Counted from the stretch's first letter, positions 726 to 55,405 are shown. The stretch is 64,000 nt of DNA from Nitrososphaerota archaeon (GCA_029786595.1 JAFLXO010000003.1:4990-68989), one strand, 5' to 3'. The notes: generated by a model not told the origin, from the sequence alone. Numbers and translations are program-made.

Positions 726-1508
726 CTATTTCAGCGCGCTGATAACGTTTAACGGCATCTTCCTTACGATTGCTTCTTTTATACGGTCTATGACTTCAGA
801 GGACGTCTCCCAGACATCACGTCTCTTTGGCGGTCTTAGGATTGTCCCGTCTATTTTCATCGTCCCTTTTTGATGTACGTTAAAGAGGTACTGATAGACG
901 ATGTCGCCTACGGTTTCTTCTAGCACAGACTCCATACCAAATATAGATTTATATGTGATGGTTACCTCGGAGAAATCCAGGTTAAGGTGGCCGCTTTCCA
1001 TCTTCAAGTCTCCAGTGAAAGATGTTTTGTTCTTGGTGTCTGTTGGAGTAATGGTCAGGGAGTATCCGTTTATCTGCTTGTTGAGCACATTATGGTTCCT
1101 CAGGTGCTGAATGTTTCTCAACGCCGTGGTATACACCGTTATGACCCTGTCTATTGCGTTAGGCTTCTGCTCTAGTATTATTTCTTGTCCTGCCAGTATG
1201 AGGAATTCTGACCGCGTCTCATCCGGCTCAGCATGGTTGCCATTGAAGTCTTCTCTTGGACCGTGTCTTAGGAACCTATCGATGCCTTTCAACAAGGCCA
1301 CCTTCTTTATCAGGAGGTCAGAGTCCGGTACAGAGACCCTGTAACGGTAATTAATGTCTGGTATCCTTTTGACATGGTACTTCCTGATGAGGTACCACCC
1401 CAGGGGGGTGTTAAGCAAGTATGGTATGTCTTTTAATGTTTTTACCGCCTTGTCGTCTGGTAAGACCATCATATCGGTTCTTGAAGCGTCTACGAGGAGG
1501 TGTATCAT
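726..1508 (-). CDS. AL-tail paralog family member (subtype A)
   Basis: 260-aa ORF. The core LIRKYHVKRIPD..YRVSVPDSDLLIKKV is shared with neighbour 1767..2540. It ends in the family tail KMPLNVISALK. Confidence 0.7.
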   Translation of the reverse strand: MIHLLVDASRTDMMVLPDDKAVKTLKDIPYLLNTPLGWYLIRKYHVKRIPDINYRYRVSVPDSDLLIKKVALLKGIDRFLRHGPREDFNGNHAEPDETRSEFLILAGQEIILEQKPNAIDRVITVYTTALRNIQHLRNHNVLNKQINGYSLTITPTDTKNKTSFTGDLKMESGHLNLDFSEVTITYKSIFGMESVLEETVGDIVYQYLFNVHQKGTMKIDGTILRPPKRRDVWETSSEVIDRIKEAIVRKMPLNVISALK

Positions 1509-1512
1509 GACA

Positions 1513-1770
1513 CTATTCGTCTCTATCTAACGTCTTTGCCTCAGCTATCAAATTCTCTGGGTTAGTATACTCTTCAACCCGGACATGGCGACCGAGCACT
1601 TCGTCGACCACTGCCCGTACTGTCTTGAACGTCAGCATTTCATTTGAATTAAGCACTGCTGATAGGAGAATCTCTCGGTTTTTATACCACTGCACGACTA
1701 TCACCCTCCATATATTAACTTCGTCAGGAACTGTCAGTGGACGCGGCTTATTAGCCTGCCACCATGTCAT
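1513..1770 (-). CDS. small hypothetical protein (85 aa)
   Basis: Only the distal part (MTWWQANKPRPL...) of track ORF 1513..1995 is free of overlap. The ATG at 1770 forms an ATGA start/stop overlap with the stop of 1767..2540. Confidence 0.5.
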   Translation of the reverse strand: MTWWQANKPRPLTVPDEVNIWRVIVVQWYKNREILLSAVLNSNEMLTFKTVRAVVDEVLGRHVRVEEYTNPENLIAEAKTLDRDE

Positions 1771-2540
1771 TCTAACGCATGCATAACAGCAATAGGCACT
1801 TCTTTGACTATCGCGTCTCTTATCATATCGGCCATATCGAATATCATGCGAATACGGTTGATTGTGGATTTCAATGTTATAAAAGCCCCATCTATCTTTA
1901 TGGTCTGGGGGCGTTCGTCTGAAGGAGTGTTGCTGAAGTTGACATTGTTTATGAACATTTCTCGTACAGCCTCTCCTAACTCTTCTTTCATACAAAATAG
2001 AAACCTGTAGTAGATTTCTGCTTTTGGGAACTCAATGCTGAGATGTCTGCTCTTTACGGCGACGTCTGCTATAAGAGCGAGTTGTCTTTCGGTATTGATC
2101 GGTTTGATGGTAACCGTATATGGGGGTATTCTTCTTATGAGGGTCTTATAGGCTTTCAGCCGTCTGATGTCATCCATCATGGTCTTATAAGCAACAAAAA
2201 CCATGTTTAGCTTTCGTGACCGGTTCGTCATGAACAACTCGTTCGCTATGGAAGTTAGGAATGCCGGGCTTGAGACTTTAAGTTCACCGCCCGTTACGTC
2301 GTTCCTGAGGTATTTGTGAAGGTCTTTCATACAGATTATCTTCTTTGTTAACCGGTCTGATTCAGGTACTGATATTTTAAAGATGCCCTTAGACCCCATA
2401 CCCCTCAGGCGGTATTTCCTTATCAGATAATATATGAATGGGGTGGCAAGTTCTGGTGTTGTAGCCTGTTCTGGTTTCGGGGTGTTATCTGGGTCGGAAA
2501 GGTACACAGCGCCTAAAGACGGATACAGATATAAGTCCAT
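1767..2540 (-). CDS. AL-tail paralog family member (subtype A)
   Basis: 257-aa ORF. The core LIRKYRLRGMG..FKISVPESDRLTKKI is paralogous to 726..1508. Tail is KEVPIAVMHALE. Confidence 0.7.
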   Translation of the reverse strand: MDLYLYPSLGAVYLSDPDNTPKPEQATTPELATPFIYYLIRKYRLRGMGSKGIFKISVPESDRLTKKIICMKDLHKYLRNDVTGGELKVSSPAFLTSIANELFMTNRSRKLNMVFVAYKTMMDDIRRLKAYKTLIRRIPPYTVTIKPINTERQLALIADVAVKSRHLSIEFPKAEIYYRFLFCMKEELGEAVREMFINNVNFSNTPSDERPQTIKIDGAFITLKSTINRIRMIFDMADMIRDAIVKEVPIAVMHALE

Positions 2541-2612: not shown

Positions 2613-3515
2613 TTAGGTGGCAGGGTCAGGCGATACTAACCCTGCCAGTTCTAGTGATTTGAACCTGTTCCTGATGGTCACTTCTGTTATTTCAGCCGCT
2701 ACCGCTATGTCCTTCTGAGTGCGCCCGGCCGCGAATTTCAGACATGCGACATATAAGGCGGCCCCCGCTAGGCCCATCGGCGCCTTTCCAGGCTGGATGC
2801 CCGCGTCAGCAGCCCGTTTCAATATGCTGTATGCTTCACGTTTTATAGGTTCTGATAGGTCTGCCTTTGACGCTATCCTCGGAATGTATTCCTGGGGCGG
2901 GGGCACAGGCATCGTTAGGTCCAGGTCTCTTAAGAGCAGCCTGTAGCACCTGCCGATGTCTTTCTTCTTCATCGTGGATACGGCTGCCAGATCCTTCAAT
3001 GTCTTTGGGACTCCCAGACCTCTACAGGCCGCATAAAGGGAAGCTAGGACCATACCGGTTATAGACCGGCCGCGGACCATGTTCTTCTCGAGCGCCTTCC
3101 TGTAGATGTATGCAGCACGCTCCCTGACTGCCTGGGGCACCGTTATTTTTTCAGCATACATCTTCAGCTCTTCCATGGCCTGCTTGAGGTTCCTGTCTTC
3201 TGGCTCCAGCGCCTGGCTCCGTGCGTCCCACATCCTTAGCCGTCTCATTGCCGCCCTGTCCAGGACGCTAGCTCCACCAGCGTCTTTGTCCCGGCTGTCA
3301 ACGGTCGTAGGGAGCCCCATGCCCGGTTTTGTTATTGATATTTCAGGCCCATTCTGAGTCGAAGCTGAGAATTCTTTGACATCATACACTATATGCTCGG
3401 TGGCGCACATACCGCAATTGGAGCAAACTCGTTCGCCTGTTTCACTATCTGTGATTATCGGGCCACCATTGCATTTGGGACATTTTCCACTGTTTAGCTG
3501 ATATTGCCTATTCAT
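2613..3515 (-). CDS. tfb: transcription initiation factor B (TFB/TFIIB homolog)
   Basis: 300-aa ORF with the canonical archaeal TFB layout. It has an N-terminal zinc ribbon (CPKCNGGPIITDSETGERVCSNCG), two cyclin-like repeats and a C-terminal HTH (TQKDIAVAAEITEVTIRNRFKSL). Confidence 0.9.
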   Translation of the reverse strand: MNRQYQLNSGKCPKCNGGPIITDSETGERVCSNCGMCATEHIVYDVKEFSASTQNGPEISITKPGMGLPTTVDSRDKDAGGASVLDRAAMRRLRMWDARSQALEPEDRNLKQAMEELKMYAEKITVPQAVRERAAYIYRKALEKNMVRGRSITGMVLASLYAACRGLGVPKTLKDLAAVSTMKKKDIGRCYRLLLRDLDLTMPVPPPQEYIPRIASKADLSEPIKREAYSILKRAADAGIQPGKAPMGLAGAALYVACLKFAAGRTQKDIAVAAEITEVTIRNRFKSLELAGLVSPDPAT

Positions 3516-5593: not shown

Positions 5594-6349
5594 TTATTTG
5601 AGCGCCATGACCACTTCTATCGAGACGCCAGTGTCTATAGCCTTTAACACAAGAGGGCTGGTTTCATTTGTAAGCGCAATACTACGTGTTTTCATAGGCA
5701 CTTCTAAGGCCACCATGGCTTGCTGCTTGTTATTTGAGGATGTTCCAATAGCGAATAGCATGGTGTCGTTCATAAGGAGAGCGGTGTATAGTGAATTTCT
5801 TATATGAGAACGGACGTTTCTTTTAGGGTCGCTGACGGTTTTGATGACATCGTTGGTGTTTAACTGAATTAAGTATTTGACTGGTGTGGTTAAGTTGGCT
5901 GTTATTGTATAGAGCCTGAACCAACCTAACGGTCGTGGCTGGTTCTCTGTGAGGCGTATCGTGATTTCTGGGTTTTTTGACACCGATACTGTTTTCCCAT
6001 GTGATAATTGGGTTTTAGCTTTTAGCCCACGGTCAATCATTTCTTGTTTTGAAGCGATTTCTGCTAAATCTAAGTTTCCTGACAGCGCCCGTTCAATGGT
6101 TCGGTTATTGACACCATATGACACCATGTTAATTAAGTCTACCACCGGTTTTGGCACCGACCACACCTGGTATCCATGCGTTTTTGTAGATGCCGGCTCG
6201 TTTTTTATAAGTGTTCCATTTTTTGCGATGGCCAGGATTATGCGCGCGGTGAGAGCGCTTCCTGGGGCTACAGTGTTGTTTTTAGTCCTAAATATTGTTT
6301 CATAATCAAGACTTATTGTGACCTTCTCGTTCATTAACCACCACCTCAT
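5594..6349 (-). CDS. AL-tail paralog family member (subtype B)
   Basis: 251-aa ORF. It is clearly alignable with 9232..10038 (ARIILAIAKNGTLIKNEPAS..GYQVWSVP..LINMVSYG..PEITIRL). Tail is KAIDTGVSIEVVMALK. Confidence 0.75.
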   Translation of the reverse strand: MRWWLMNEKVTISLDYETIFRTKNNTVAPGSALTARIILAIAKNGTLIKNEPASTKTHGYQVWSVPKPVVDLINMVSYGVNNRTIERALSGNLDLAEIASKQEMIDRGLKAKTQLSHGKTVSVSKNPEITIRLTENQPRPLGWFRLYTITANLTTPVKYLIQLNTNDVIKTVSDPKRNVRSHIRNSLYTALLMNDTMLFAIGTSSNNKQQAMVALEVPMKTRSIALTNETSPLVLKAIDTGVSIEVVMALK

Positions 6350-6436: not shown

Positions 6437-7456
6437 TCACTTAAGCGATAACATCACAGTCAGTGGGATATTGTTTGTTATCGCTGTAGCCACGTCGTCC
6501 CAGGTAAGGTCGCCTAGCCGTTCTGTCGAAACGGCGGTTGTCGGGTTTTTGACTTTATAAACCCCTCTCATTAAGGTTGGTAAATCCCGACTGGCCAAAA
6601 AACCTGACTTGAGCAGGCGAGTTATGAAAAACCTAGGATAATGGTTTTTCGATATCTTGATGACCTTTATCGTTGTCCCTTCAAGGGTCAAATAAATGTC
6701 ATAGATGGGGCGGTGTCTGCGCCACTGTCTTGATTTTTTGACCGTTATTGTGATACTTCCAAATCGAGTCTGTGTTGTCATAGTCTTTCCAGAGATGAGC
6801 GCCCGCTCCTTTGCTTTGATTAAACGTTCACGCTCCTTTGCCTTTTCAACCCCTTTAACGCCCAACTCGTATCCATTTGGGGTATCTGGGTCGAACGCTC
6901 TGCATATGCTCCTGGTCTGGAATTTTGTTGCTACCAAGAGTTTAGTCATCGCAGCAGGATTTACGTTTAATTTTAGTGTATTATCTAGGCCTGGAGTAAT
7001 TCCACACAACGTTGATTCCTTTCCAAGAAATGTAAGGAGGTTCATCAACCCTTGGCCCCTTCTCAGCATTACGCCTCCCAGGACGCGGTTGTTATCAACC
7101 AAATCTATGTTTATCCCTATGGGACGACCAACATACAGCGTCGCATTGACAGGTCCTGGCGAGTTCTCCCTCTTTATAACCTGCCTTATAGATTCAAATA
7201 TAATCCTGTTTTTTGCATGTCGCGTCGCTGTAACTAGTTTCTTGCCAATCTCGATGAGCTCTGGATCGGTGGTTTCGAAGACGTTCTTCTTGACCCGTGT
7301 TCCGAGTTTCGCTACTAAATATAACAGGGCCAACCCGCTCTTGGTGCCAACGGCTACCCAGCCACCAGTGTCAGGGAATACGATTTTCATTGAGTTAAAC
7401 CATCCTGGCTTTAGATATATCTCGATTGTGGTCTTTAGCATTGTCTCACCTATCAA
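6437..7456 (-). CDS. AL-tail paralog family member (subtype C)
   Basis: 339-aa ORF alignable along its length with 11178..12191 (GWVAVG..GTRVKKNVFETTDPELIEIGKKLVTA..ICRAFDPD..KAKERERLI). Tail is ATAITNNIPLTVMLSLK. Confidence 0.75.
   Translation of the reverse strand: MIGETMLKTTIEIYLKPGWFNSMKIVFPDTGGWVAVGTKSGLALLYLVAKLGTRVKKNVFETTDPELIEIGKKLVTATRHAKNRIIFESIRQVIKRENSPGPVNATLYVGRPIGINIDLVDNNRVLGGVMLRRGQGLMNLLTFLGKESTLCGITPGLDNTLKLNVNPAAMTKLLVATKFQTRSICRAFDPDTPNGYELGVKGVEKAKERERLIKAKERALISGKTMTTQTRFGSITITVKKSRQWRRHRPIYDIYLTLEGTTIKVIKISKNHYPRFFITRLLKSGFLASRDLPTLMRGVYKVKNPTTAVSTERLGDLTWDDVATAITNNIPLTVMLSLK
7226..7305. repeat. 80-nt tract about 90 percent identical to 11970..12049
   Basis: Hand alignment gives 72/80 identical bases, including exact runs cgctgtaactagtttcttgcca and tcgaagacgttcttcttgacccg. 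It lies in the N-terminal coding part of the subtype C paralogs. Confidence 0.8.
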
Positions 7457-9231: not shown

Positions 9232-10038
9232 TTACTGCTCTTTTAGCGCCAACACCGCTGATACTGGGATGCCTTTATTGGTAGCCTTGGATATTGCGTC
9301 ATATATTTCAGGTGTAAGATGACTCCTTGGCGTCCCTTTAGGTATCTCAAGTATTTTCAACATCTGTTTAGTTTGGAACAAACCCCATGTGTCTGACCGG
9401 GTGTAGACAACCCCATCTACGAATACCGCTTCAAGATCTTTCGTATTTATATCAAAACGTACAGCTGATAATGGGGTTTCGATGAACCTGACGACGTCCG
9501 CCTTGGTCATTAAAACTAGATATTTGATGGGAAGTTTCAACGCTGCCGTTATGACATATGGGTTGTAGCTGAAATTATTCCCCGGTGCAGTACCCCAGTC
9601 TGCTAGTCTGATTGTGATTTCTGGACGTTGTAAGGCCAAGACAGTGTTCTTCCGCTTCAGACGGCGTAGAACAGCCAAAGCCCGGTCAATAGCATCTTGC
9701 GTTGGACGAAGGCTGACTTCATCAAGAGTTCCTGATAACACTTGTGCTATGGTTTGTTCCGGGGTACCGTAGTTTACCATGTTGATGAGGGTCGCCAATG
9801 AGGAAGGAACCGACCAAACTTGATATCCACAAGTTCTAGCAGAAGCGGGCCTATCCTTTACAAACATGCCTTTCTTTGTGATAGCCAGGAGTATACGTCC
9901 AGAGAGCGATGCCCCAGGCTTGATACACTCAGTCCGAGTTTCAAATCCGATACCATCCCAGAAGCTTATTTTGATGTTTTCAAAATTATCCGTATTTTTA
10001 ACTATCAATGTTATCTCACTCCTTTCATGCAAGCACAA
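9232..10038 (-). CDS. AL-tail paralog family member (subtype B)
   Basis: 268-aa ORF paralogous to 5594..6349 (GRILLAITKKGMFVKDRPAS..GYQVWSVP..LINMVNYG..PEITIRL). Tail is ISKATNKGIPVSAVLALKEQ. Confidence 0.75.
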   Translation of the reverse strand: MCLHERSEITLIVKNTDNFENIKISFWDGIGFETRTECIKPGASLSGRILLAITKKGMFVKDRPASARTCGYQVWSVPSSLATLINMVNYGTPEQTIAQVLSGTLDEVSLRPTQDAIDRALAVLRRLKRKNTVLALQRPEITIRLADWGTAPGNNFSYNPYVITAALKLPIKYLVLMTKADVVRFIETPLSAVRFDINTKDLEAVFVDGVVYTRSDTWGLFQTKQMLKILEIPKGTPRSHLTPEIYDAISKATNKGIPVSAVLALKEQ

Positions 10039-12273: not shown

Positions 12274-12891
12274 TCATGTCAACGCCATCGCCGTTTCTAA
12301 TGAAACGTTTTTTGTTATAGCCCGTTCCAGGATGTCGTTGAACGTTGCCTCGTCGAACCCTGCTTTTAGGATGGCCTTATCAGTGATGGCGTCGAGGTGC
12401 AAGGTTTTATCAACCAGTTGGGGTATTATCCAATCCACCCAACTGACATCGACAGCTGGTCCGGAATACATCGCATGGATTTTGGCCGATCCGATAGTCA
12501 ACACCACAGTAATCTTGCCAACATCATACGTACCAGGGTGCACAGGGGAGGTAGACGAGAGGCCATGCTTTATTGTTTCTTTGAATCTGAGTGTAAAGGA
12601 CGCCCCGCTTTCAAACATGTAATTACAACTACCGGTCTCTCTGAGCGTCTTTGTGAGCCTGAGAATTACCTCTTCTTTTGCGAGCTTATAACGTATAGTT
12701 TTGACGATTTCCTTAGGGTCTGAAACGTTGTATGTCCAGCCGTCAAGGCGGTCAGGAGTGACAAATTTCTGTAATGTGTCTGGCAGTGAGTTGAATATGC
12801 CGACCAGCTCATTTTGCTCCTTTTCTGGCAGGGTTATGAACCTGCGCATTTCTGGACTTGCTAGTACGTCTATGAGATTTTTCGCTTGCAT
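12274..12891 (-). CDS. AL-tail family member (tail only, different N-terminal body)
   Basis: 205-aa ORF. Tail is ILERAITKNVSLETAMALT. The start overlaps the 3' end of the phosphatase gene, so it may begin at a downstream Met. Confidence 0.55.
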   Translation of the reverse strand: MQAKNLIDVLASPEMRRFITLPEKEQNELVGIFNSLPDTLQKFVTPDRLDGWTYNVSDPKEIVKTIRYKLAKEEVILRLTKTLRETGSCNYMFESGASFTLRFKETIKHGLSSTSPVHPGTYDVGKITVVLTIGSAKIHAMYSGPAVDVSWVDWIIPQLVDKTLHLDAITDKAILKAGFDEATFNDILERAITKNVSLETAMALT

Positions 12892-13321
12892 GATATAATC
12901 TCCCCCCTTCTGCCGTCTCGATGTCTGCTATGTCCTGTTCTATACTCGACAAGATAGCCCGTCTTGTCCTGTAAAACTGGTATGCCTCCCGGAGAGGCAG
13001 TGCGTTAGTCTTATACAAATAATATATCACAGCCAACGGCGACCGTTCTACACCAGCTGCACAGAAGACGACGACGCTGGACCCTTCTTTATGGTATTTC
13101 TTGATGGTGTCAACCACCCGGTCCAGGGCTGCTACGTCGATGCGGGTATTATTCTCTCTGGTCCTGATCGGGATTATGGTGTCATAAGATAGCCCAGGGA
13201 CGATTTCTGTGGCCCCGAGGACCCCGAGATACCGTACCTGTTCGTTAACGTGCGTCTTCTGGAACTCGATGACGTCCGCAATGCCGCCCTGGGATAAAGA
13301 ATTCGTCACTTTGGTGAGCAA
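12809..13321 (-). CDS. cysteine-dependent (CX5R) protein/polynucleotide phosphatase, dual-specificity-like
   Basis: P-loop signature VVVFCAAGVERSP (C-x5-R-S) sits in a small alpha/beta-sized protein. The track ORF extends to 13465 but overlaps 13324..13548. I placed the start at the TTG at 13321; the start is uncertain. Confidence 0.6.
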   Translation of the reverse strand: MLTKVTNSLSQGGIADVIEFQKTHVNEQVRYLGVLGATEIVPGLSYDTIIPIRTRENNTRIDVAALDRVVDTIKKYHKEGSSVVVFCAAGVERSPLAVIYYLYKTNALPLREAYQFYRTRRAILSSIEQDIADIETAEGGRLYHASEKSHRRTSKSRNAQVHNPARKGAK

Positions 13322-13323
13322 CC

Positions 13324-13548
13324 TCAACCACACCCGAGGGCCTCGATGACGCCTATGATTACCAGAACGACCAGGCCTAGTATCGCTAGGATGACTAAGC
13401 CGAATATAAGGAACTGCCAGAAAATGATTTTGCCGAGAGGTTCCAGTAATATCCCAAACGCCCATCCGCCTAAAAGATAAATCAGCCCTAACCCGCCGGC
13501 AACCAGTAGTAGTAAGATTACTTTGCTTCCTCTTATCACTTTCAACAA
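13324..13548 (-). CDS. small membrane protein (74 aa)
   Basis: Almost entirely hydrophobic (ILLLLVAGGLGLIYLLGGWAFGILL.., FGLVILAILGLVVLVIIGVI). Confidence 0.5.
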   Translation of the reverse strand: MLKVIRGSKVILLLLVAGGLGLIYLLGGWAFGILLEPLGKIIFWQFLIFGLVILAILGLVVLVIIGVIEALGCG

Positions 13549-13747
13549 CCTCCTATATTATCACAAATGCGACGGCTATGTTCCCGTATTTCTTTATCCT
13601 AAGATTCCCAAGTTCAGGACCAAGCCGACCACCCGATAGGCGGTGCGCGTCATGACGATCTTTCTTGCTCCTTTTTGACCTTGGCGAGCTGCCAGCCGCT
13701 ATACGATCATACTGGGTTTGACAGCGTCTAATATGTCCCTGACTCCA

Positions 13748-19647: not shown

Positions 19648-19706
19648 TCTCTCACCTCATTTACCTAGAGCTGCCATTGTATTCAAAGGGACGTCACTTC
19701 CAATGA

Positions 19707-20135
19707 TTATGAATGGTACGGGTTTCCCCAGAATGCAAACGTCACAATTATGTCTTTAGTATACTCTTTGAAATAGTCGAAGTTCGGCGGATGGCCTCCA
19801 ACACTGCCCAATTCATATCCATAGGGCAAGATGGTTTCTTCAACTCTTTCTCCTTTTAACACAGATGTGTCGGTCCAGTCACTTCTTGTATGCTCAACAA
19901 ACCACGCCCAGCGCCGCATCGGCCGTACTTCAATTGTGTACCAGTCTGGATCTTTGTCATCTGAAAGGGCCTCTACCACAGCTGGGTCTACCCCGTCAGT
20001 AAAACTGTGGCGGTTCACATACTTTGGGAAGTCTGCTATAGACGTGCAGTATATACCCTCAGCCTTCAAAGTTTTCACGATTGTGCGGACTTCGTCTATT
20101 ATTTCAGCGTGTGTTAAGGTCTTGGCTTTTTTCAT
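19707..20135 (-). CDS. hypothetical protein, small paralog set 2
   Basis: 142 aa. EIIDEVRTIVKTLKAEGIY..FPKYVNRHSF..VEALSDDKDPDWYTIEVRP resembles 14372..14779. Confidence 0.55.
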   Translation of the reverse strand: MKKAKTLTHAEIIDEVRTIVKTLKAEGIYCTSIADFPKYVNRHSFTDGVDPAVVEALSDDKDPDWYTIEVRPMRRWAWFVEHTRSDWTDTSVLKGERVEETILPYGYELGSVGGHPPNFDYFKEYTKDIIVTFAFWGNPYHS

Positions 20136-22485: not shown

Positions 22486-22809
22486 TTATACTAGGTTGAA
22501 CACGTCTGTATAATAGAAATCAGCGTCAGTGACGGTCAGCCCCAGAGGAACCCCTTCTGTCGATATGCCTATCTTGGTGCCGTCAGTCAACAACACCTCA
22601 ACCGTTTTAATGACGGCGGGATCTCCAGGAGATAACGCCGCCGCAGCAGAATCAAATTTGTTAAGGTTGGCGGCTTTAATTGCTGCACAGAGATCTCTGA
22701 CGGCTTCTTCTGTCAACGGTGAAACACTCTTCTTGATCAATTTTGCGTTAAATGAGTCATCATCGACAGGCTTGACCATAAACATGACTGTCTTGCCAAA
22801 GAGTTTCAT
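22486..22809 (-). CDS. hypothetical protein
   Basis: 107-aa ORF with a 4-nt overlap with 22806..23141. Confidence 0.55.
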   Translation of the reverse strand: MKLFGKTVMFMVKPVDDDSFNAKLIKKSVSPLTEEAVRDLCAAIKAANLNKFDSAAAALSPGDPAVIKTVEVLLTDGTKIGISTEGVPLGLTVTDADFYYTDVFNLV

Positions 22810-23141
22810 ATCTTGTCATCACCTAACGCTACTGCTTCGGCTACGCTGATATTATATTCTAACGCTGTTTTGATCCTTCCAAATGTTATGTCTTTTTCGT
22901 TAAACGGGGAAGGCTCGCCGTCGACTTCTCCGAGCATGAACCCAACGTTCACCAACATAGGTATTATCTCCCTGACGTGCTGCGGGAAGGTTTTTATCTG
23001 GACGCGGCTTAGGCCGTTAAACCTGATGGTTGGGGTCTCTACACTGATCAGTGAAATCGCTTCTTTTGGAAAGAAGCAGCACTCTATTTTGATTTTCTCT
23101 GGCTTGTACCGCTTCTTTGTGATGGTCGGCATGCTAAACAT
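22806..23141 (-). CDS. AL-tail family member (short form)
   Basis: 111 aa. Tail is RIKTALEYNISVAEAVALGDDKI. Confidence 0.5.
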   Translation of the reverse strand: MFSMPTITKKRYKPEKIKIECCFFPKEAISLISVETPTIRFNGLSRVQIKTFPQHVREIIPMLVNVGFMLGEVDGEPSPFNEKDITFGRIKTALEYNISVAEAVALGDDKI

Positions 23142-33045: not shown

Positions 33046-33825
33046 TTACGACAGGGCCTGAATTGCTTCTATTGGTATGTCCTTTTTAATCGCCGTTATG
33101 ACACCAGTTTTGTACTGGGGTGTTATCAGTTGGATGGATTTCTGTACTATTACCGGGTTATTCCGTCTTATGACAACGGCGTGACCGTCAGCATAACTCA
33201 AGTCCATGGTCTTAAAGTCCTTGCCGTTTATCTTGACGTAGTCTTCAATGATGTCGTATTTGTTGTTTAAATCCGACACAACGCTGGCGACTGGATTGCT
33301 TTTTATCTTAAGGAGCGTATAAGGAGACAGAATATTGATTAAATACTGGATGTTGATAGCCTTGGTTTTTATGCTTAAAAGATACGCTATCTGGTTGAAT
33401 GGCGGGACTCTCGTTGGGTTTATGGTCAGCGTCCCTGAGTTGAACGGGATTGATATGGCGTAGCCAGATGTCCCGGTCGTGGTAGCATGTAAGCCTAACT
33501 GGTCGAGCTCCTTCTTGGCCTTGATATATGTGTCAACCATCTCATTAATACCCTGTTCATCGTCTAACCCTAACTTTACCTCAAGTTCATGATAACTACG
33601 GGCGGTCAGACTTTCATCTAACATATACAGCAGCAGGTTGGCAGTAAATTCAGAAACTTCATATGTCTGGATGGCGTGCTTAGTGTTGACGGTGTTGACC
33701 AACGTGCCATTTTGCGCGAGGATCATCAAAGCCCGCATGTCCAAAGGAGACAATGACAACGTGATAAGAGGCTCTTTACCGATCTTCAATGATGGGCGGT
33801 TGTTAAAATTTAATACTACTTTCAT
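33046..33825 (-). CDS. AL-tail paralog family member (subtype F)
   Basis: 259 aa, clearly paralogous to 40614..41390 (VVLNFNNRPSLKIG..MRALMILAQNGTLVNT..IQTYEVSEFTANLLLYMLD). Tail is ITAIKKDIPIEAIQALS. Confidence 0.75.
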   Translation of the reverse strand: MKVVLNFNNRPSLKIGKEPLITLSLSPLDMRALMILAQNGTLVNTVNTKHAIQTYEVSEFTANLLLYMLDESLTARSYHELEVKLGLDDEQGINEMVDTYIKAKKELDQLGLHATTTGTSGYAISIPFNSGTLTINPTRVPPFNQIAYLLSIKTKAINIQYLINILSPYTLLKIKSNPVASVVSDLNNKYDIIEDYVKINGKDFKTMDLSYADGHAVVIRRNNPVIVQKSIQLITPQYKTGVITAIKKDIPIEAIQALS

Positions 33826-34367
33826 CCTTCCACCTTACTAGGGTCCGATAAAGCGCTAGCAACCTCAAACGGAATGTTATGTCTCAATGACGTCCTTACC
33901 ACCTCTGCTGTTGATTCGCAAACAACCGTCGGAGTCGTGTTATCTAGTATAATGGTGTCGTTTATGATACGTTTAGCGTGCTGCTGGGGCGTGATACTAT
34001 ATAGAGCTTTCGGATCACAGACCAAGTCAACGAGCCCTTCATGCGGCGGATACAATACTCTAAATAGGTGCATGTAAGAGTGCAACATCATCTGAGTAAC
34101 CTCGATTTTCAGGACGCCATTGAACGTGATATCGAACCGGTTTGAGGGCAGGGGGTGTATACTCTTGGAGTGTTTATACTCATTAATGTTAAGAAACGTA
34201 AAAGTGCCGTCAGATGTTGTAACCGTCACATTTTTCCTTGCAAATATATCACCAATCGCTGTTTTGATCACTTTGATTTCATCGGTGATAGGGCCTAATA
34301 TGGATTGAATCTTCTCCGGGATGTCGAAATTGTCATATAATACCTTCGATATTTTTGCCGTGACCAC
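33822..34367 (-). pseudogene. C-terminal fragment of a disrupted AL-tail family gene (subtype G, homolog of 41402..42196)
   Basis: VVTAKISKVLYDNFDIPEKIQ..FTFLNINEYKH..LKIEVTQ..LYPPHEGLVDL.. aligns with residues from about 95 to the end of 41402..42196. Tail is LRHNIPFEVASALSDPSKVEG. Only a GTG start is available, so it may still be expressed as a truncated protein. Confidence 0.6.
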
Positions 34368-35666: not shown

Positions 35667-35763
35667 CCTCCTGTGTCAAATGATTTAGCCATTCGGCATC
35701 GTCCGGATGTTGCGGGTCTGGTGCTGACCCTCCCCGGCCCAAGCCAACGCAACAGAACCCCCA

Positions 35764-38333: not shown

Positions 38334-38699
38334 CTAATATAGCGCTATCGCGGTTTGGATTGATATGCCGTTAAGGATGGCCATTATAACGGATTTTAAC
38401 AATTTGGCTGATTTTACTTCCTTGGCCCCGTCAATGTCGATGATATCAGAGTTGCCGTCTCCGTTCAAAAGCCAAATGACGCCGAGCACATGCTCTAGCT
38501 TTCCATTGACTCTAAAGGCGTCACACGAACAAACAAAATCACTCCTTACGGTGATGGTGTTGAACCCAGTCCTTATTTTGGTTGTCCAGAAATCCTGGTC
38601 CGGGCGTTTTTTAGAGACTATGGTGGTTTTGTTGAATTCAAACCGGCGTTTCTCATATCCATGCTTCACATTTAACACCCAAACTGGGCGGGGACGCAA
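38334..38699 (-). CDS. AL-tail family member (short subtype E)
   Basis: 121 aa, paralogous to 42286..42648 (FNKTTIVS..WTTKIRT..ITVRSDFVCSCDAF). Tail is VIMAILNGISIQTAIALY. The start is uncertain because it overlaps the small ORF 38672..38833. Confidence 0.6.
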   Translation of the reverse strand: MRPRPVWVLNVKHGYEKRRFEFNKTTIVSKKRPDQDFWTTKIRTGFNTITVRSDFVCSCDAFRVNGKLEHVLGVIWLLNGDGNSDIIDIDGAKEVKSAKLLKSVIMAILNGISIQTAIALY

Positions 38700-45345: not shown

Positions 45346-46980
45346 TCATACCAGCCCGGCTTGCTGCTGTTGCTTCTTAAGTAGATCTTGGAGAACGAGT
45401 TTGCCCGCTTCTTCTGGCCTGATGGCGAACATATAGACCCCTTTGTTATTGAACTTCATAATCTGCTCTTTCAAAGAACTCCTGCTGGGGTCTTCGGTGA
45501 CCAGACTTATGACCACCCGGTTTTGTTTTGCCAGGCTGAATATCTGGGTACTCGCTTGTTCTGCTTCACTCACGGACCCGTCAGTGATTATGAGGATGAA
45601 AGATTCTGCCGGGGTTAGTTTTTCGACCTCATTTAACGCAGAAGTGATGACCGTGTTACCGCCGGTCTTGCTCCTGAGCTCAGAGATGTGTGCAAGCGTT
45701 GAGATAGCCCGGGACCCGACCCCCACCCAGTCCTTCGAATTCTTTTCAGTGGTCGCCGCGCGGCTCCCGAAGTAAATCAAAGACGCTGGGATTCTGTTCT
45801 TTTTGGCGTATGCGAGGCTCCTTACCGCCGTTATCGTCTCCCAGTAAAGGATCGACCTGTCTTTGAAGAAGGTGTCTGTAGAAGTCGACACGTCGATGAC
45901 CGCTATGAACGATTTGAACCCGAACGACTGGTTCTCCTGTTTGATATACCTGAAGACGCTTGTGTACTTCTTCTTCCACTTGGTGGGCTCGTACCTGTTT
46001 TGCGCGACACTGATTGGGTTTAGCCTGGAGACGTCTCCGCCGAGCCACCGTTTGTTAAGCTTCTGGTATATCGGCATCTGTGAACTGGAGCCTTCCAGGA
46101 TGTTGAACGGGAGTATCGAGTCCCATATGAGCTGCCTGGTCATATCCTTGGATATGTCTGCGATGGCGTCGTCTGCGTTGATATCGTTGTTATTGAGCAA
46201 GTCTTTGATCTGGTCGGCGCTAAGGCCTGCCTGTATCCCGATCCCTGCCACGGCGCTACCCTGAGATGTGGGAGTTGCCTGGCCTCTGCCGCTTCCACAC
46301 GCCCCTTCCTGAGACCCTGACTGTATTAAGGAATTGAGGTTCTTAGCAGCATCGACGATCAAATCGATGTTTTTTTCGACCTTGCAGGCTTCTTGCTCCT
46401 TTATGAGCCTGTAGACGTCACTGACAAGGGTCCTAAATGCTGGAGAGGACCTGATACTGCCATCCATATACGTCTTAGGTACCTTTACCCCCATTGTTTC
46501 GGAATAGACCATCTGCAATATATGGAACCCTGAACCTGGCGTGATTTTGCCGTTCTTGACGATCCAGTCTTCCTGTGCGCTACGCATGGCGAACCCTTTG
46601 CTGTCGAGGACACTGTCAATGACGGCGTCTGCGATGATGTTCTCCAGTTCATGGGCTTTGCCGTTCGGCACCCTCAGCTCTGCCATGATCCTGGCCTCGA
46701 TGCGCTTGCCTTCTAAGAAAGAGCTAGGCAGCCCATCTATCGACATGTGCTCGTGCTCATGGCCCATATGTGCCCGTAGGTGCTCGGGTTTGAAGCTGTT
46801 CCAGGTCGGTGGGATGTAGATGGTCATATCAGCATACGACGATGAGAACGTGGTCGCCGTCCTGTCTAATTTTACTGTGACGCCCTGAGGTGGAGGAGGG
46901 AATAAATTCCTCCTTACCTCTAGAGCTACATCAATCAATTCCTTAGGCGCTGGTTCTGGTTTTTGAGCCTGTGTGCGCAT
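45346..46980 (-). CDS. VWA-domain protein with N-terminal zincin-like (HExxH) domain, MoxR partner
   Basis: 544 aa. The N-terminus has HMGHEHEHMS (HExxH). The C-terminal VWA-like region has IAVIDVSTSTD (a degenerate DxSxS MIDAS). It lies immediately downstream of the MoxR-like ATPase. Confidence 0.6.
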   Translation of the reverse strand: MRTQAQKPEPAPKELIDVALEVRRNLFPPPPQGVTVKLDRTATTFSSSYADMTIYIPPTWNSFKPEHLRAHMGHEHEHMSIDGLPSSFLEGKRIEARIMAELRVPNGKAHELENIIADAVIDSVLDSKGFAMRSAQEDWIVKNGKITPGSGFHILQMVYSETMGVKVPKTYMDGSIRSSPAFRTLVSDVYRLIKEQEACKVEKNIDLIVDAAKNLNSLIQSGSQEGACGSGRGQATPTSQGSAVAGIGIQAGLSADQIKDLLNNNDINADDAIADISKDMTRQLIWDSILPFNILEGSSSQMPIYQKLNKRWLGGDVSRLNPISVAQNRYEPTKWKKKYTSVFRYIKQENQSFGFKSFIAVIDVSTSTDTFFKDRSILYWETITAVRSLAYAKKNRIPASLIYFGSRAATTEKNSKDWVGVGSRAISTLAHISELRSKTGGNTVITSALNEVEKLTPAESFILIITDGSVSEAEQASTQIFSLAKQNRVVISLVTEDPSRSSLKEQIMKFNNKGVYMFAIRPEEAGKLVLQDLLKKQQQQAGLV

Positions 46981-46986
46981 TATTTG

Positions 46987-48594
46987 CTACCTCCCTGCGG
47001 TCTTGTCGGTTAACGCTGATATGGCACCTGAAAAGTCAATCTGTGGGTTGATCTGGTCCAGGACCGTCATGTCGCCTTTCTTCCTGGCCGTCTCTTTTAT
47101 CATGTCGATGGCCTCGTCCAGAATAGACCTGATTATGAGCTGGTCGATATATTGGTTCCGGAGTTTCATGGCCTCGCCGATGTCTTTGGTGACCCAGACG
47201 TTTCTGATCGTCTTGAAGTCCTTGGTGAGCAATTTCGCCTGCTCCACGTATTCCTTAACAAGCGCAGCGGTTGCCTTATATTGGTCACCGTATTTTATGA
47301 GGAAATCGGTGCTGTTCCAGAGCACCCTGTGGCTCAGAGACATGATTAGAGCTGGCTCTAGTTCGGGTGTCGACGCGACCTGCCGCTTGTTGATTAGCGC
47401 CAAGATCTTCAGAGCCTCAGTGGCGACTATTATAGGCCTTACCTTTGTGATGTTGCCCTTTGAGCATGGGAACGACTTATACGCGCATAAGTCGCAGTCC
47501 TTTGTCACCATGAACGGGTCGAACGACTCCATGATCCGGTTCTGCTTGGTGGGGGTATAATAGCATCGCGACAGATGTGACACCAGCCCTATAAGGAACG
47601 TCTCGAGGCCGTCGTCGATTTTGACCGTCTTGACAGCCTGCCTTGCCTTGTAGATGATTTCGATCGGCACTGGTTTGATGTTCCCCTTGAGCCGCTCTAA
47701 CTTTTGTATGATTTCCTTAATCTCTTGCACTGAAGGCGCGGCTGCCATGGTCGAAAACGCGTATCTGTCGAACGTGGCGGCGTCTGTCAGCGCGACGTTG
47801 CTCTGGAAGTGTTCGTTTAATGGGTTCGTCGCAAGTATGATGGTGAGCGGCTTGTACTCGACGCGCCCGATGGCGGTATCGTAATACCCCTCATTGAGTA
47901 TCCTGTGGATTTGCGCCAGGAGCATTGGGCCCTTGAACGCTTCGTCCAGGATTGCCAGATCAGCGCCTAGCATCCTGCCCTTCTTCTCTACATGAGGTGG
48001 TTTGCGGCCTAACATTATCGGATGGTCTATTACGGTCCCGAGTATGTCCTGTGGCTCATCCAGGTTGGTCAGGGTCTTGATATAGACAGTTATGGGGACG
48101 TCCTTTACAGGCCCCAGGCTGGCCGATTTGGGGTGTTTTAGAACATCTATTTCTACTTTGACCCCGAGTATGGTCCCAAATTCGGTGTAGTTGACATCCA
48201 CCCCGTCGACCAGGTTCTTGCTCAGCGCGTCAGCGTCCACACCGATCTTAGCTGCGATTTCACCGACGTATTTCAGCAGCTCCCTCTCTGGTATGTAACC
48301 GGACGCTTCAGCCTTTGTGGTGAAATCCTTTTCCAGAGTAACCACAGGCTTGTTGAATAAAGAGCCTATGAACTCTGCTATCGAGGTCTTGAAAACCCCT
48401 GGCGGGCCCTGAATAAGGACCGGTTTCCCGGCCAGGGTCCCCACCAAGATTGTGTTGGCCATCTGCCATTGCGAATACCCCCGATACACGTTGGTGATGA
48501 TACTGAATATCTGGTTCAGCATCACAGAAGTTTGTTCGAACTCCGTGATCTGCTGTGTCGCTTCTGTAGTAGTTACCATTTTCTTACCTCCCAA
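46987..48594 (-). CDS. MoxR-like AAA+ ATPase
   Basis: Walker A is LIQGPPGVFKTSIAE, Walker B is LAILDEAFKG and sensor-1-like is IILATNPLNE, followed by a long helical C-terminal extension. Confidence 0.7.
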   Translation of the reverse strand: MGGKKMVTTTEATQQITEFEQTSVMLNQIFSIITNVYRGYSQWQMANTILVGTLAGKPVLIQGPPGVFKTSIAEFIGSLFNKPVVTLEKDFTTKAEASGYIPERELLKYVGEIAAKIGVDADALSKNLVDGVDVNYTEFGTILGVKVEIDVLKHPKSASLGPVKDVPITVYIKTLTNLDEPQDILGTVIDHPIMLGRKPPHVEKKGRMLGADLAILDEAFKGPMLLAQIHRILNEGYYDTAIGRVEYKPLTIILATNPLNEHFQSNVALTDAATFDRYAFSTMAAAPSVQEIKEIIQKLERLKGNIKPVPIEIIYKARQAVKTVKIDDGLETFLIGLVSHLSRCYYTPTKQNRIMESFDPFMVTKDCDLCAYKSFPCSKGNITKVRPIIVATEALKILALINKRQVASTPELEPALIMSLSHRVLWNSTDFLIKYGDQYKATAALVKEYVEQAKLLTKDFKTIRNVWVTKDIGEAMKLRNQYIDQLIIRSILDEAIDMIKETARKKGDMTVLDQINPQIDFSGAISALTDKTAGR

Positions 48595-52609: not shown

Positions 52610-52993
52610 TTACTCCTCCTGGTTGGTATACGTCGGGACATTGTCCAATTCTTTCGGCAACAGGCCTCTTTTTACCATTTCCTTGGTATGTATGAAGGCC
52701 ATCAAGTTCCACGCGGCAGCCACATCATGTGGCTCCGATCTATCACCCTCCCGGTATTGGTTGATGTGCCGTAGAGCAGCATCTAGATACCTGGAGAGAT
52801 CGATACCCGCTTCCCAGTTTCGTCCGTTACCATATTTTATAGCACCGCGTTCGCAGTGCATCGCCAGTTCCTTCAAAAATATCGGGCTTATGAGGTCATA
52901 CCGGCCCTTCCCGACCGGAGGTTCCCGGACCGCGCCGGAGTTATATGACACCCTTTTACCAGAGTCTGCAAGTTTTTCACCCATAGAGATCAC
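52610..52993 (-). CDS. dATP/dGTP diphosphohydrolase N-terminal-domain-like (DUF5664-type) protein
   Basis: 127 aa. GKGRYDLISPIFLKELAMHCERGAIKYGNGRNWEAG..YLDAALRHINQY..EPHDVAAAWNLMAFIH matches my recollection of this phage-associated family. Confidence 0.45.
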   Translation of the reverse strand: MISMGEKLADSGKRVSYNSGAVREPPVGKGRYDLISPIFLKELAMHCERGAIKYGNGRNWEAGIDLSRYLDAALRHINQYREGDRSEPHDVAAAWNLMAFIHTKEMVKRGLLPKELDNVPTYTNQEE

Positions 52994-53289
52994 CTCTGTT
53001 CAATGGCACGGAACACCACATACTGCACAAAGTCCTTGAACGGTAATGGGACATTGTTGGCAGCTTTGATTGCCGCCACAGGGTATTCTTTTGCCAGTGC
53101 CCGGATGCGCTTTATCGCCGGTTCTGGCTCGGTGTCGAGCGTGTTCACCAATGTTATAAACTCTTTGATCATTTGGTGGACGCTCGGCTTCTCTATCTCT
53201 TTGTTACACAAAGAGCAGATGTATGTTATGGCGACGTTGCTTTTGTTGTCCTTTGCCCTACACATCTTTCCGCCGCACTCACAAATCAA
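52990..53289 (-). CDS. small zinc-ribbon protein
   Basis: 99 aa with CECGGKMC...CSLCNKE. It has 4-nt overlaps on both sides. Confidence 0.5.
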   Translation of the reverse strand: MICECGGKMCRAKDNKSNVAITYICSLCNKEIEKPSVHQMIKEFITLVNTLDTEPEPAIKRIRALAKEYPVAAIKAANNVPLPFKDFVQYVVFRAIEQR

Positions 53290-54662
53290 TTCTCGTCACT
53301 CCTGTCTTTCTGGGTATGGGAAACGCTCCCACGGCCGCCGTATACTATGGATGAAATCAGGTGGCCATAGCCTTTCTCAGGGACCATCTTGCCCCTGTGT
53401 TCGTTGTAGTATACAGGGGGTGCTTCAAAGTACAGATACTTTGGTACTTCAAGATATATGGTCTTTGGATCAATTTTGCGCTCCAGAAGCTGGGCAGCTA
53501 TAACCGCCATTATGCGTTCGCGTATCTGTTTGTTGAGGGTCCTTGTTATGTCTCTCTCAGCGTCTTCTGGAGATATCTTGAACTTTGAAATGTAGTATGT
53601 CTTTAACGTGTCGATTGGCACCCCGTTGAGCCCCATCTCGTCTATCACATTGGCCCTTATCATCTCTGTTTGCTCCTTGTCAAGGAACGTCGCCTTGTCC
53701 AGAACGTCTTCTGGCGAGAACGACGTCTGTTCAAATACATGCTTTACAGCGTAGTCTATGATGAACTGGAGGTTCCCGACCATCCTTTCAAAACTAAGGA
53801 CATCAGCCCGTTTTATCTTGATATACTGATCTGGCCCTTTATAGACGAGCCCCTCTTCTGTCCACCCTGACATCGCATCTTCTGGGGCGGTGGTGCTGAC
53901 CTTCCATCCTCTTACAGGTTCTACCAGCCCGTTGACCGGGACCATTCTTTTCATGGTCTCATAATCGAGGAATTCATAACCTCTGTCTGTCTCGACCAGG
54001 ATGTCGAAGACTTTGAATTTGGCGTCAAACGGGTAGAGCATCCCGTATTTCATCTCTTTGTCGACGGCGATGGGGTTGTATTTTGTCAGGAATTCTGAAG
54101 AGACGAGTTTCACATCCCTGGCGTCAAAGACCGGGCCGAGCGCCGCCTTTAGCCCTGGTATCACGGAAGACACCACGACGTTGCCCATCTCGTCTATCAT
54201 CCCGTTAGACCTGCCTTCATTGAATACTGGGAGATACCGCTGTTTGAAAGACGCGAACGTGGTTACTGGTATCCCTGGGACCGTTTGGTTTCCAAGGACA
54301 AGGTTGTAATTGATGTCATTGTAGAACCTTGCAGGCTCTATAGTCCCTCTGGTCCTATGTATGAGGCCGCGCTGGAGGGCCAACATCATTATCTGGGTCC
54401 CGTTGACCTTTTCTGTCAAGAACCCTCCAGGTGACAGCGCTTCAGAACGCAGGTTGTCTATATGTGGGTAGTTCAGGAGCCACTCAGATGTCGTGACGTC
54501 CATAGCGAGGCCAAGATATTTGTTTGTTTTGACACGCTGCATCAAGTACTTCCCACCATCTGAGTTGCTGAAGACCAGCTTGTGGCCTCCGTACTCGAGC
54601 TTATGCGACGACTTTAACAGTTCCTTTATATCGTCGAGCTCTTTATGTGTATAAAATAACAT
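53286..54662 (-). CDS. large RNA ligase-like nucleotidyltransferase (Rnl2-type motif I)
   Basis: Ordered motifs are present: I TEKVNGTQ (EKxxGxN-like), III SSEF, IIIa VFDIL, IV EEGLVYKG, V YIKIKR. Confidence 0.45.
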   Translation of the reverse strand: MLFYTHKELDDIKELLKSSHKLEYGGHKLVFSNSDGGKYLMQRVKTNKYLGLAMDVTTSEWLLNYPHIDNLRSEALSPGGFLTEKVNGTQIMMLALQRGLIHRTRGTIEPARFYNDINYNLVLGNQTVPGIPVTTFASFKQRYLPVFNEGRSNGMIDEMGNVVVSSVIPGLKAALGPVFDARDVKLVSSEFLTKYNPIAVDKEMKYGMLYPFDAKFKVFDILVETDRGYEFLDYETMKRMVPVNGLVEPVRGWKVSTTAPEDAMSGWTEEGLVYKGPDQYIKIKRADVLSFERMVGNLQFIIDYAVKHVFEQTSFSPEDVLDKATFLDKEQTEMIRANVIDEMGLNGVPIDTLKTYYISKFKISPEDAERDITRTLNKQIRERIMAVIAAQLLERKIDPKTIYLEVPKYLYFEAPPVYYNEHRGKMVPEKGYGHLISSIVYGGRGSVSHTQKDRSDEN

Positions 54663-54673
54663 GTTCTTGCCTC

Positions 54674-55405
54674 CTATACTTCAAATGCCGTGGCGACGTT
54701 GATGGGGACGCCCATCTCCAGGGCCAGCACCAATGATTTCTTTATTGAATTAACCATCTTGACGGGCTGTGAGTTTATGACAAATGTGGTATGTTGCTTG
54801 GTGGCGTTAATGACGTTGGATTTGAAGGCCTGTCTAGTATGTTGGAGCAAAGAAAAGAGCGCCGAAGGGTAGCTTATCCTCACATACGGCATCTCTATGG
54901 TATCTATATTTGCCAGTGTCTTCAACCCGAATATAACGGTATAGTTATGGAAAGGGAATGGCTGAACTGTCCGCACCCTGATGTCTACCGTTATATCCTT
55001 ACCAACATGGACAATATTCTTACCGGCCTCCAACTTATGAAACATATCAATGGTTTTATCGCTTAGTTCTAAGTACGCCTTTAACCTGTCGCGCCTGGCT
55101 GGGTTTCCGCATAACCTTTCAAGCACCGATATGTCTACAGTTGTTATCGCTTTCAGTATGGAAGTGTGGGCCATAGGATAGGGGGTATACCGTGAGAACC
55201 TGCCATAGACGGCGCATACTAGGCTTTCTATGATTGTTTTACGGTAATCTGACGTCACAAAGAGTTCTTCTTTGTCTGAAGACTTGATTAAGATGCCACT
55301 ATGTTCGATGCTTATTGTACCTTCTTCTGTCTTTGGCATTTTTAGTATACCGGCAGCGATGCGGCGGCCTGCCAGATATGCAGTGCTTACGACGTCGTTT
55401 CTCAT
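54674..55405 (-). CDS. AL-tail family member (distinct body)
   Basis: 243 aa. Tail is SLVLALEMGVPINVATAFEV. Confidence 0.55.
   Translation of the reverse strand: MRNDVVSTAYLAGRRIAAGILKMPKTEEGTISIEHSGILIKSSDKEELFVTSDYRKTIIESLVCAVYGRFSRYTPYPMAHTSILKAITTVDISVLERLCGNPARRDRLKAYLELSDKTIDMFHKLEAGKNIVHVGKDITVDIRVRTVQPFPFHNYTVIFGLKTLANIDTIEMPYVRISYPSALFSLLQHTRQAFKSNVINATKQHTTFVINSQPVKMVNSIKKSLVLALEMGVPINVATAFEV

Follow-up and report, generated by a model that had tools for sequence, protein, structure and literature searches.

To our knowledge, most of the proteins encoded by archaeal viruses and giant archaeal elements have no assigned function, and examples of archaeal anti-defence or host-takeover proteins are very few. 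Fast-diverging paralogues that stand in tandem arrays, take up a sizeable share of the genome and differ from strain to strain in copy number are represented by the MGF360/505 families of African swine fever virus (ASFV) and the ANK/PRANC proteins of poxviruses, with a conserved C-terminal element in the poxvirus case. Among archaeal viruses, AcrID1 in the Rudiviridae has 35 homologues, 26 of which are encoded close together in four rudiviruses with identities down to 7% (PMC11065993), and in Borgs the JAB-type deubiquitinase-like genes are prominent (PMC12660748). The 64,000-nucleotide stretch of a Nitrososphaerota archaeon examined here (GCA_029786595.1, JAFLXO010000003.1:4990-68989), referred to as the window and numbered from its first letter, belongs to an uncultivated archaeal element, an extrachromosomal and probably viral genome of about 185 kb. 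It was found to carry a previously undescribed family of proteins, named below by their lowest coordinate, with a confidently predicted fold that matches nothing in the PDB or BFVD. We infer, with a confidence that falls a little short of even, that they form a repertoire of strain-variable, non-enzymatic binding proteins used for host takeover or counter-defence.

Twenty-one minus-strand open reading frames (ORFs), to which an earlier note made from the sequence had ascribed a common tail, were all present, and their C-termini (last 20–25 residues) align to the pattern h..Ah...hPh..h.AL. Their coordinates sum to 15,153 nt, or 23.7% of the window, in agreement with the 15 kb estimated previously; coding in the window, which holds 99 non-overlapping ORFs, is about 92% on the minus strand. 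A hidden Markov model (HMM) of the tail recovered the 21 members at 15.9–34.3 bits, with all matches ending 0–7 residues before the stop codon, while the next-ranked minus-strand match was an out-of-frame fragment of 32 aa (12.7 bits), and the highest-scoring unrelated match among 1,131 six-frame ORFs reached 11.1 bits. As this test is circular, the HMM was rebuilt with each sequence group (A–J and S, Table 1) left out in turn, and at least one member of every group was then found at rank 1–3 of some 1,100 ORFs; 4829, 11178 and 41402, which ranked poorly, are connected with other members through BLASTP of the full-length proteins. A loose regular expression, hPh..h.AL at the C-terminus, was satisfied by 21 of 21 members and by 1 of 78 other genes. 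Chance hydrophobic C-termini, named in the earlier note as the alternative to related tails, are ruled out by the leave-one-group-out HMMs, the positional constraint and the control with the regular expression. An origin of the tail at the DNA level (repeat element, terminator or gene conversion) was likewise rejected, since entropy in the tail is 1.39 at the first, 0.97 at the second and 1.85 (nearly random) at the third codon position, so that the tail is conserved as protein and not as a DNA repeat or conversion tract.

BLASTP linked members into the sets 726/1767, 5594/9232/4829/7591/8376, 6437/11178, 33046/40614, 3731/41402 and 38334/42286, and both halves of a split gene to 41402. Nineteen of the 21 members are intact and have ribosome-binding sites, and a GGTGA-type site lies upstream of most family genes; inspection of the 90 nt upstream of these genes revealed no common motif containing TATA/BRE elements. 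All 21 members counted earlier are thus real, and the family extends beyond them, with two further tailed genes outside the window, 1–2.4 kb from its start (12523–13200 and 13178–13891 of the related contig L009) and a possible 22nd tail within the window (19657–19755). The 21 ORFs, together with at least two just outside the window, are near-certainly tandemly amplified paralogues of one lineage-specific protein family.

The relationship is not confined to the tail. Groups were enriched with database relatives, the last 28 residues were removed and profiles were compared by hhalign (single-pair E-values), which gave 7.5e-18 for B–F, 1.2e-4 for B–D, 2.9e-4 for B–A and 4.8e-4 for D–A (185 colinear columns), and weaker values for D–E (3.6e-3), B–E (5.7e-3), B–G (8.6e-3) and B–C (0.021). 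With a family HMM built without C-type members, a colinear alignment was still obtained over the C-terminal half of the 6437 protein (independent E-value 0.0036). No body signal was obtained for groups H, I, J and S in the tail-less hhalign and family HMM comparisons. The central regions, first described as completely different, are therefore homologous and colinear, at least in groups A, B, D and F, and the picture of a shared tail on unrelated bodies gives way to that of one full-length fold, to which both the tail-less profiles and the structural models point.

The AlphaFold2 model of the 5594 member, computed from an alignment of 38 sequences, is compact and two-domained, with a mean predicted local distance difference test (pLDDT) of 94.4 and a predicted template modelling score (pTM) of 0.86. 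Its N-core comprises strands 2–10 and 12–16, helix 26–39, strands 41–46 and 55–61 and helix 62–72, and the elements from residue 26 onwards agree with the N-terminal core and secondary structure guessed from the sequence beforehand. A linker of helices 77–84 and 90–111 leads to the C-domain, whose order is four strands, two helices, two strands, a helix and a strand, followed by the tail (helices 226–235 and 239–245, pLDDT about 96). The short S-type member 42286 was modelled from an alignment of S-types with the C-domains of other window members, so that the result is alignment-guided and supportive only; it consists of four strands, a helix, two strands and a two-helix tail (pLDDT 77.7, pTM 0.67), an order equal to that of the C-domain of 5594 minus one helix-strand insert. 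Thus, the full-length form of about 250 aa, which lacks signal peptides and membrane segments, is predicted to be soluble and to consist of an N-terminal strand-strand-helix-strand-strand-helix domain, a helical linker and a C-terminal alpha/beta domain. In the models the conserved tail forms the last two helices of the C-terminal domain, as an integral part of the fold, and the short members resemble an isolated C-terminal domain.

No described family accounted for these proteins, in line with the failure to recognise them at first sight. Ten members gave nothing below E 0.03 in Pfam and PHROGs; with 38 members no Pfam family was matched by more than one member at E ≤1, and PADLOC returned chance matches by single members only. 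Sequence-profile searches of the PDB gave a best E of 0.1 for the whole protein and, for a tail profile of 41 sequences, a best E of 0.041 to unrelated proteins (AB hydrolase, NarH). In its spacing the tail recalls GIG-type hairpins. Assignment of the tail as a HhH, UBA or HTH motif was rejected, with no such protein in the tail-profile PDB search and no such Pfam match. With a fold match defined as a Foldseek E ≤1e-3 or a template modelling (TM) score >0.5 over a domain, none was found in the PDB or BFVD: the full-length model (pLDDT 94) had a best PDB E of 0.29 with a query TM-score of 0.16 and a best BFVD E of 0.10, and the S-type, C-domain-only model had a best PDB E of 0.83. Residues 2–61 of 5594 (two strands, a helix, two strands) recall the AbrB-like hairpin-helix-hairpin unit in their order; as no AbrB, MazE or SpoVT entry occurred among the Foldseek matches, a swapped-hairpin (AbrB/MazE) or other cradle-loop barrel was dismissed for the N-domain. 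Searched exhaustively with HMMER, 1.84 billion representative proteins yielded 39 clusters at E ≤1e-3, of 92–342 aa and all with the tail, which come from a few related metagenomic contigs. From 5.8 billion clusters, four family proteins were recovered by a word-indexed search, and two S-type clusters only by a second one with the S-types as query; the proteins from both word-indexed searches have no Pfam domains, and their sole names are 'hypothetical protein [Nitrososphaerota archaeon]'. The 5594 member had no tblastn match in 50,697 phage and archaeal-virus records.

Compared with the systems above, the family resembles the AcrID1 clusters of SIRV1/2/3 as an archaeal-virus family with many divergent, clustered copies per genome, non-enzymatic and presumed to act at the interface with host defence. 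It has no sequence relationship to AcrID1, its members are two-domain proteins of about 250 aa rather than small proteins, and host lineage, genome size and virus type differ; membership of AcrID1 or another known archaeal anti-CRISPR family was rejected for want of any tblastn match of the 5594 member or PHROG match of ten members, and because no early-promoter motif common to the family genes was seen upstream of them. The likeness to the ASFV and poxvirus multigene families lies in the tandem diverging arrays and strain-variable copy number. Unlike those families, this one has an archaeal host, its C-terminus is part of the fold and not a separable adaptor box, and its members are not poxvirus-type ANK/F-box (PRANC) adaptors, as there were no ANK, F-box or PRANC matches and the body is a two-domain alpha/beta fold. 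With Borgs and other giant archaeal extrachromosomal elements the locus shares large size, one-strand gene orientation, many hypothetical proteins, multicopy families and, in the window, two JAB paralogues; unlike in Borgs, however, the family is neither a JAB protease nor a glycosyltransferase, its detectable homologues are confined to its own small clade, nothing links it to Borgs by sequence, the G+C content is 44–52%, and the contig is labelled Nitrososphaerota, not Methanoperedens. As expected of a lineage-specific viral multigene family, at least 21 copies stand in two arrays, belong to one clade and vary in number between strains, in an element that is probably viral.

The conservation pattern bears on what the proteins may do. 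The 40 most conserved columns are occupied by Leu, Ala, Gly, Pro, Ile, Val or Phe, the polar exceptions being a beta-strand Thr and a D/N-G turn, and among the conserved family columns there was no Asp, Glu, His, Lys or Cys that would point to a catalytic or metal site. Mean pairwise identity among members is 18% in the N-domain, 15% in the linker, 15% in the C-domain and 26% in the tail. The tail is therefore the best-conserved segment among paralogues, and it is present even on members of 111–121 aa and on bodies without detectable similarity. These features fit the idea, put forward in the earlier note, that the C-terminal hairpin docks all paralogues to one hub (a ligase, protease, chaperone or packaging machine) while variable bodies select substrates, as with poxvirus ANK/F-box proteins, and candidate hubs are encoded by the element (ThiF/E1-like with JAB, MoxR with VWA). 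Such an adaptor role is nevertheless improbable. Conserved tail positions are solely hydrophobic, Gly, Pro or Ala, with polar positions varying freely, and this restriction to buried-type positions speaks against a docking epitope shared by all members; when orthologues of two strains are compared, identity in the tail (75.1%) does not exceed that in the body (75.3%, Fisher p 0.93), so that the tail keeps a pattern of buried-type residues and not a fixed recognition sequence. Furthermore, AlphaFold makes the tail an integral, high-confidence part of the C-domain, the bodies are homologous and not unrelated, and no F-box, UBA, HhH or PDB motif resembles the tail. Under the binding-repertoire reading, the conserved tail and N-core would be the longest buried segments of the fold, and the tail would be kept for its buried, structural role in clasping the C-domain, and perhaps as a self-association surface too, rather than as a shared docking peptide.

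Of the seven residues in the last helix, five are conserved as hydrophobic or small, which exceeds the need of one buried face and makes a second, intermolecular interface possible. The same residues, and a copy number suited to combinatorial assemblies, would be expected of structural or assembly proteins (virion, decoration, or an intracellular lattice or compartment) that use the hydrophobic C-terminal hairpin for homo- or hetero-oligomerisation among paralogues; this is quite unlikely, as the arrays sit among genes for replication, nucleotide metabolism and transcription, outside any morphogenesis module, copy number differs between near-identical strains, and no similarity to capsid, tail or shell folds was found.

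Variation between strains was examined by comparing the window with the syntenic contig L012; synonymous (dS) and nonsynonymous (dN) divergence was computed by the Nei-Gojobori method, and dN/dS derives from this one strain pair. The flanks share 93.7–94.9% identity, which falls to 86% over 10.5–14.8 kb and to 73% over 7.6–10.0 kb. L012 lacks 5.77–7.60 kb of the window (the 6437 gene and most of 5594) and 1.87–2.58 kb (the 1767 gene); the first deletion is marked by a 92-aa chimeric remnant (P0041, L012 8774–9052) and that of 1767 by a 48-aa tail remnant after the gene for TFB (L011 8231–8377). In the more distant contig L005 the array has a different order and number of B-type members. Non-family neighbours have dS 0.04–0.09 and dN/dS 0.17–0.57, and family members at background dS (12274, 3731 and 726) have dS 0.055–0.12 and dN/dS 0.59–0.76, whereas in the array core (11178, 10813, 9232, 8376 and 7591) dS is 0.40–1.36 and dN/dS 0.14–0.40, with amino-acid identities of 56–74%. 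Between related strains, no other part of the region is as divergent or as prone to indels as the arrays. The label of a fast-diverging family calls for some qualification, since dN/dS (0.2–0.8 in summary) is below 1 throughout the orthologue comparison, and all copies are still under purifying selection. As dS in the core is raised as much as dN, exchange of old alleles is indicated rather than merely faster protein evolution, and the core holds much older alleles than the backbone, most simply obtained by recombination with divergent relatives.

A selfish or neutral amplification with little or no function, decaying copies included, would account for the member split by an insertion, the one tail out of frame, the remnants in related strains and the relatively high dN/dS (0.6–0.76) of some members. 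It is very improbable, given that 19 of 21 members are intact with ribosome-binding sites, that dN/dS stays below 1, that the fold signal gives pLDDT 94 from 38 sequences and that paralogues are retained across divergent relatives.

A repertoire of binding proteins is favoured on account of the novel non-catalytic fold, the tandem amplification, the restriction to one small clade, the gain, loss and allele exchange at strain level and the somewhat relaxed constraint. The proteins would be non-enzymatic binders with a fixed hydrophobic core and surfaces free to vary, each paralogue engaging a different target of the host or of a rival element; the repertoire would serve host takeover or counter-defence and would be reshuffled between strains through recombination among arrays. 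More tentative, and on balance doubtful, is a fuller version in which a large archaeal virus holds a cassette-like repertoire of at least 23 new-fold proteins with a two-domain scaffold and diversifying surfaces, segments being swapped between strains and each copy disabling or redirecting a different host defence or process, and in which a -1 frameshift at a G_GGA_AAC heptamer (described below) may decide whether the C-terminal clasp is made. Several points weigh against the favoured reading. Body homology of groups H, I and J is undemonstrated and that of group S rests on the moderate-confidence, alignment-guided model; burial of the tail is deduced from its conservation pattern and pLDDT. 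The non-family control genes for dN/dS are few and their range overlaps that of the family, and the high dS of the array core could also come from mis-assigned orthology among paralogues. Lastly, capsid, portal and terminase genes were not seen within reach, so that the element is called a virus by deduction and not on proof.

Many members are basic (pI 9–10.3, net charge up to +28 in 6437, against a window median pI of 7.9), and others are neutral or acidic. The strongly basic members, the helix-turn-helix-like layout of the tail and the presence of a TFB gene within array 1 in every related contig would suit nucleic-acid-binding or transcription factors, which might work with the element's TFB to reprogramme host or viral transcription, or might coat DNA or RNA. 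That role seems unlikely, as several members are neutral or acidic, no HTH, wHTH, RHH or HhH model or fold was matched, conserved basic residues were not found, and at least 20 divergent paralogues would be unusual for regulators in one genome.

About a quarter of the 64-kb region and roughly 8% of the 185-kb genome are given over to the family, a share which implies that the element invests heavily in it. Its predicted structure, obtained at high confidence from 38 sequences and without a known fold match, adds a new structural family, and the 21 or more paralogues with their strain alleles provide a natural variant set for binding-partner screens. If the proteins do form a repertoire, the multigene-family strategy of large eukaryotic DNA viruses would also have evolved in archaeal viruses, and if each copy acts against a different host process the family would be a source of many new anti-defence proteins at once; should they be structural or regulatory instead, the family still marks an undescribed clade of large archaeal elements.

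Table 1 Family members and neighbouring genes in the window. Bits are tail HMM scores; aa, amino acids.
Feature	Position	Strand	Bits	Remarks
Group A member, 260 aa	726..1508	-	21.5	28% identity to 1767 member, E 1e-28
Group A member, 257 aa	1767..2540	-	22.8	Absent from L012/L011, 48-aa tail remnant instead
TFB (TFIIB repeats, E 7e-43), inside array 1	2613-3515	-		About 40% identity to haloarchaeal plasmid TFBs, the database being dominated by haloarchaea
Group D member, 276 aa	3731..4561	-	22.1	BLASTP to 41402 E 1e-9; L012 orthologue 86% identical, dN/dS 0.62
Group B member, 228 aa	4829..5515	-	24.8	BLASTP to 5594 E 6e-11
Group B member, 246 aa, AlphaFold reference	5594..6334	-	27.4	Mostly deleted in L012
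Group C member, 334 aa, net charge +28	6437..7441	-	20.8	44% identity to 11178; absent from L012
Group B member, 260 aa	7591..8373	-	27.7	L012 orthologue 60% identical, dS 1.36
Group B member, 254-257 aa	8376..9149	-	20.8	L012 orthologue 74% identical, dS 0.40
Group B member, 252-268 aa, start codon uncertain	9232..10038	-	30.9	37% identity to 5594, E 1e-46; L012 orthologue 56% identical
Group C member, 337 aa	11178..12191	-	15.9 (weakest)	44% identity to 6437, E 1e-91
Group I tail-bearing member, 205 aa	12274..12891	-	20.1	Leave-one-out rank 1; body without detectable homology to the rest
RNA-ligase-domain gene	16616-17296	-		
Possible 22nd tail (…IIIGSDVPLNTMAALGK)	19657..19755	-	12.7	E 0.008; -1 frame relative to gene 19707-20135
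Group J short tail-bearing member, 111 aa, alone outside the arrays	22806..23141	-	16.8	Match ends 4 residues from C-terminus; leave-one-out rank 3
Second JAB paralogue	24005-24571	-		52% identical to JAB/MPN gene 60545-61306
RNA-ligase-domain gene	31660-32544	-		
Group F member, 259 aa	33046..33825	-	34.3	41% identity to 40614
Split group D member, C-terminal two-thirds	33822..34367	-	27.3	30% identity to 41402 residues 91-259, E 3e-20; family HMM positions 76-243, E 1e-15
Split group D member, N-terminal 64 residues	35764..35955	-		45% identity to 41402 residues 5-66, E 7e-14; ORF continues into the insert of about 1.4 kb
Group G member, 252 aa	35982..36740	-	25.7	Marginal body match to B, E 8.6e-3
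Group H member, 219 aa	37275..37934	-	21.6	Without independent body signal
Group S short member, 114-121 aa, C-terminal domain alone	38334..38699	-	19.9	36% identity to 42286
Group F member, 258 aa	40614..41390	-	30.9	
Group D member, 261-264 aa	41402..42196	-	19.4	BLASTP links to 3731 and both split-gene halves
Group S short member, 120 aa	42286..42648	-	32.3	AlphaFold pLDDT 77.7, pTM 0.67
MoxR-like AAA+ protein	46987-48594	-		Adjoins VWA protein 45346-46980
RNA-ligase-domain gene	53286-54662	-		
Group E member, 243 aa, isolated between DUF2201 gene and RNA-ligase-like gene	54674..55405	-	23.7	Body vs D E 3.6e-3, vs B E 5.7e-3
DUF2201 metallopeptidase/VWA protein	55426-56679	-		
ThiF/E1-like short gene	59953-60579	-		Overlaps start of JAB/MPN gene 60545-61306

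Individual members differ in several respects (Table 1). The length given for 5594 is counted from an ATG with a Shine-Dalgarno-like GAGGTGG before it, in 6437 some 100 inserted residues separate the N-core from the C-domain, and the isolated group E member keeps the same position in contigs L001–L003 and L006–L008. The gene at 33822/35764 is split as the earlier note described, 35955–35764 corresponding to residues 5–66 of 41402 and 33822–34367 to residues 91–259. The insert that interrupts it (34368–35763, about 1.4 kb) has a higher G+C content (0.51) and flat AT skew and contains a hydrophobic 156-aa ORF (35196–35666, minus strand); it gave no Rfam match, no plasmid protein match and no convincing terminal repeats. 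A 405-aa ORF at 34738–35955 is an artefact of read-through into the insert, and the related contig L014 shows the same arrangement of split gene and insert.

At the possible 22nd tail, the gene 19707–20135 (minus strand, 142 aa) has its stop four codons after an in-frame X_XXY_YYZ heptamer, G_GGA_AAC at 19716–19722, and past the heptamer the -1 frame continues as a family-type tail, …PVPFIIIGSDVPLNTMAALGK*. The sequence of 19657–20135 is identical in an independent assembly (L017), and no stable stimulatory RNA structure was found downstream of the candidate site (z +0.83). The locus would be either a frameshifted relic or a site of -1 frameshifting that gives a tailed isoform.

Several ENA, Logan and NCBI assemblies contain contigs, up to 185,215 bp long, that encode identical or near-identical proteins. 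The archaeal element, mobile or viral, was binned as Nitrososphaerota. Its size and one-strand gene orientation prompted consideration of a Methanoperedens plasmid or Borg origin, which was set aside, being without sequence support and at odds with the Nitrososphaerota label. No relatives of the element were found by megablast and tblastn against the GenBank phage collection, in PLSDB or in IMG/VR, and neither of two different proteins searched against GTDB representative genomes gave a match; a PHROG search for virus hallmark genes with 10 non-family proteins disclosed an ATPase only.

Besides the genes of Table 1, the window encodes a thymidylate-synthase homologue, a DHH/DHHA1 phosphoesterase, an ATP-dependent DNA ligase, endonuclease VII, an RNase T-like exonuclease, a dual-specificity phosphatase, an amino-acid-kinase-fold protein, an ASCH protein and one tRNA-Leu, and this gene content looks like that of a large lytic-type virus. 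The TFB gene keeps its position inside array 1 in all related contigs (L009, L011–L013). A dGTP/dATP diphosphohydrolase-like gene (52610–52993, assigned by synteny with L001) and the ASCH-domain protein lie near RNA-ligase genes, a combination that hints at RNA repair and manipulation of the nucleotide pool. MoxR-VWA pairs are typical of conflict or assembly-chaperone systems. The ThiF/E1-like and JAB genes may constitute a ubiquitin-like conjugation/deconjugation module or a counter-measure to one; no E2 enzyme or ubiquitin-like protein was identified among their neighbours. Finally, a second, small pair of minus-strand paralogues of about 100 aa (16252–16560 and 39463–39765), 46% identical and unrelated to the main family, was observed, with one copy located inside array 2.

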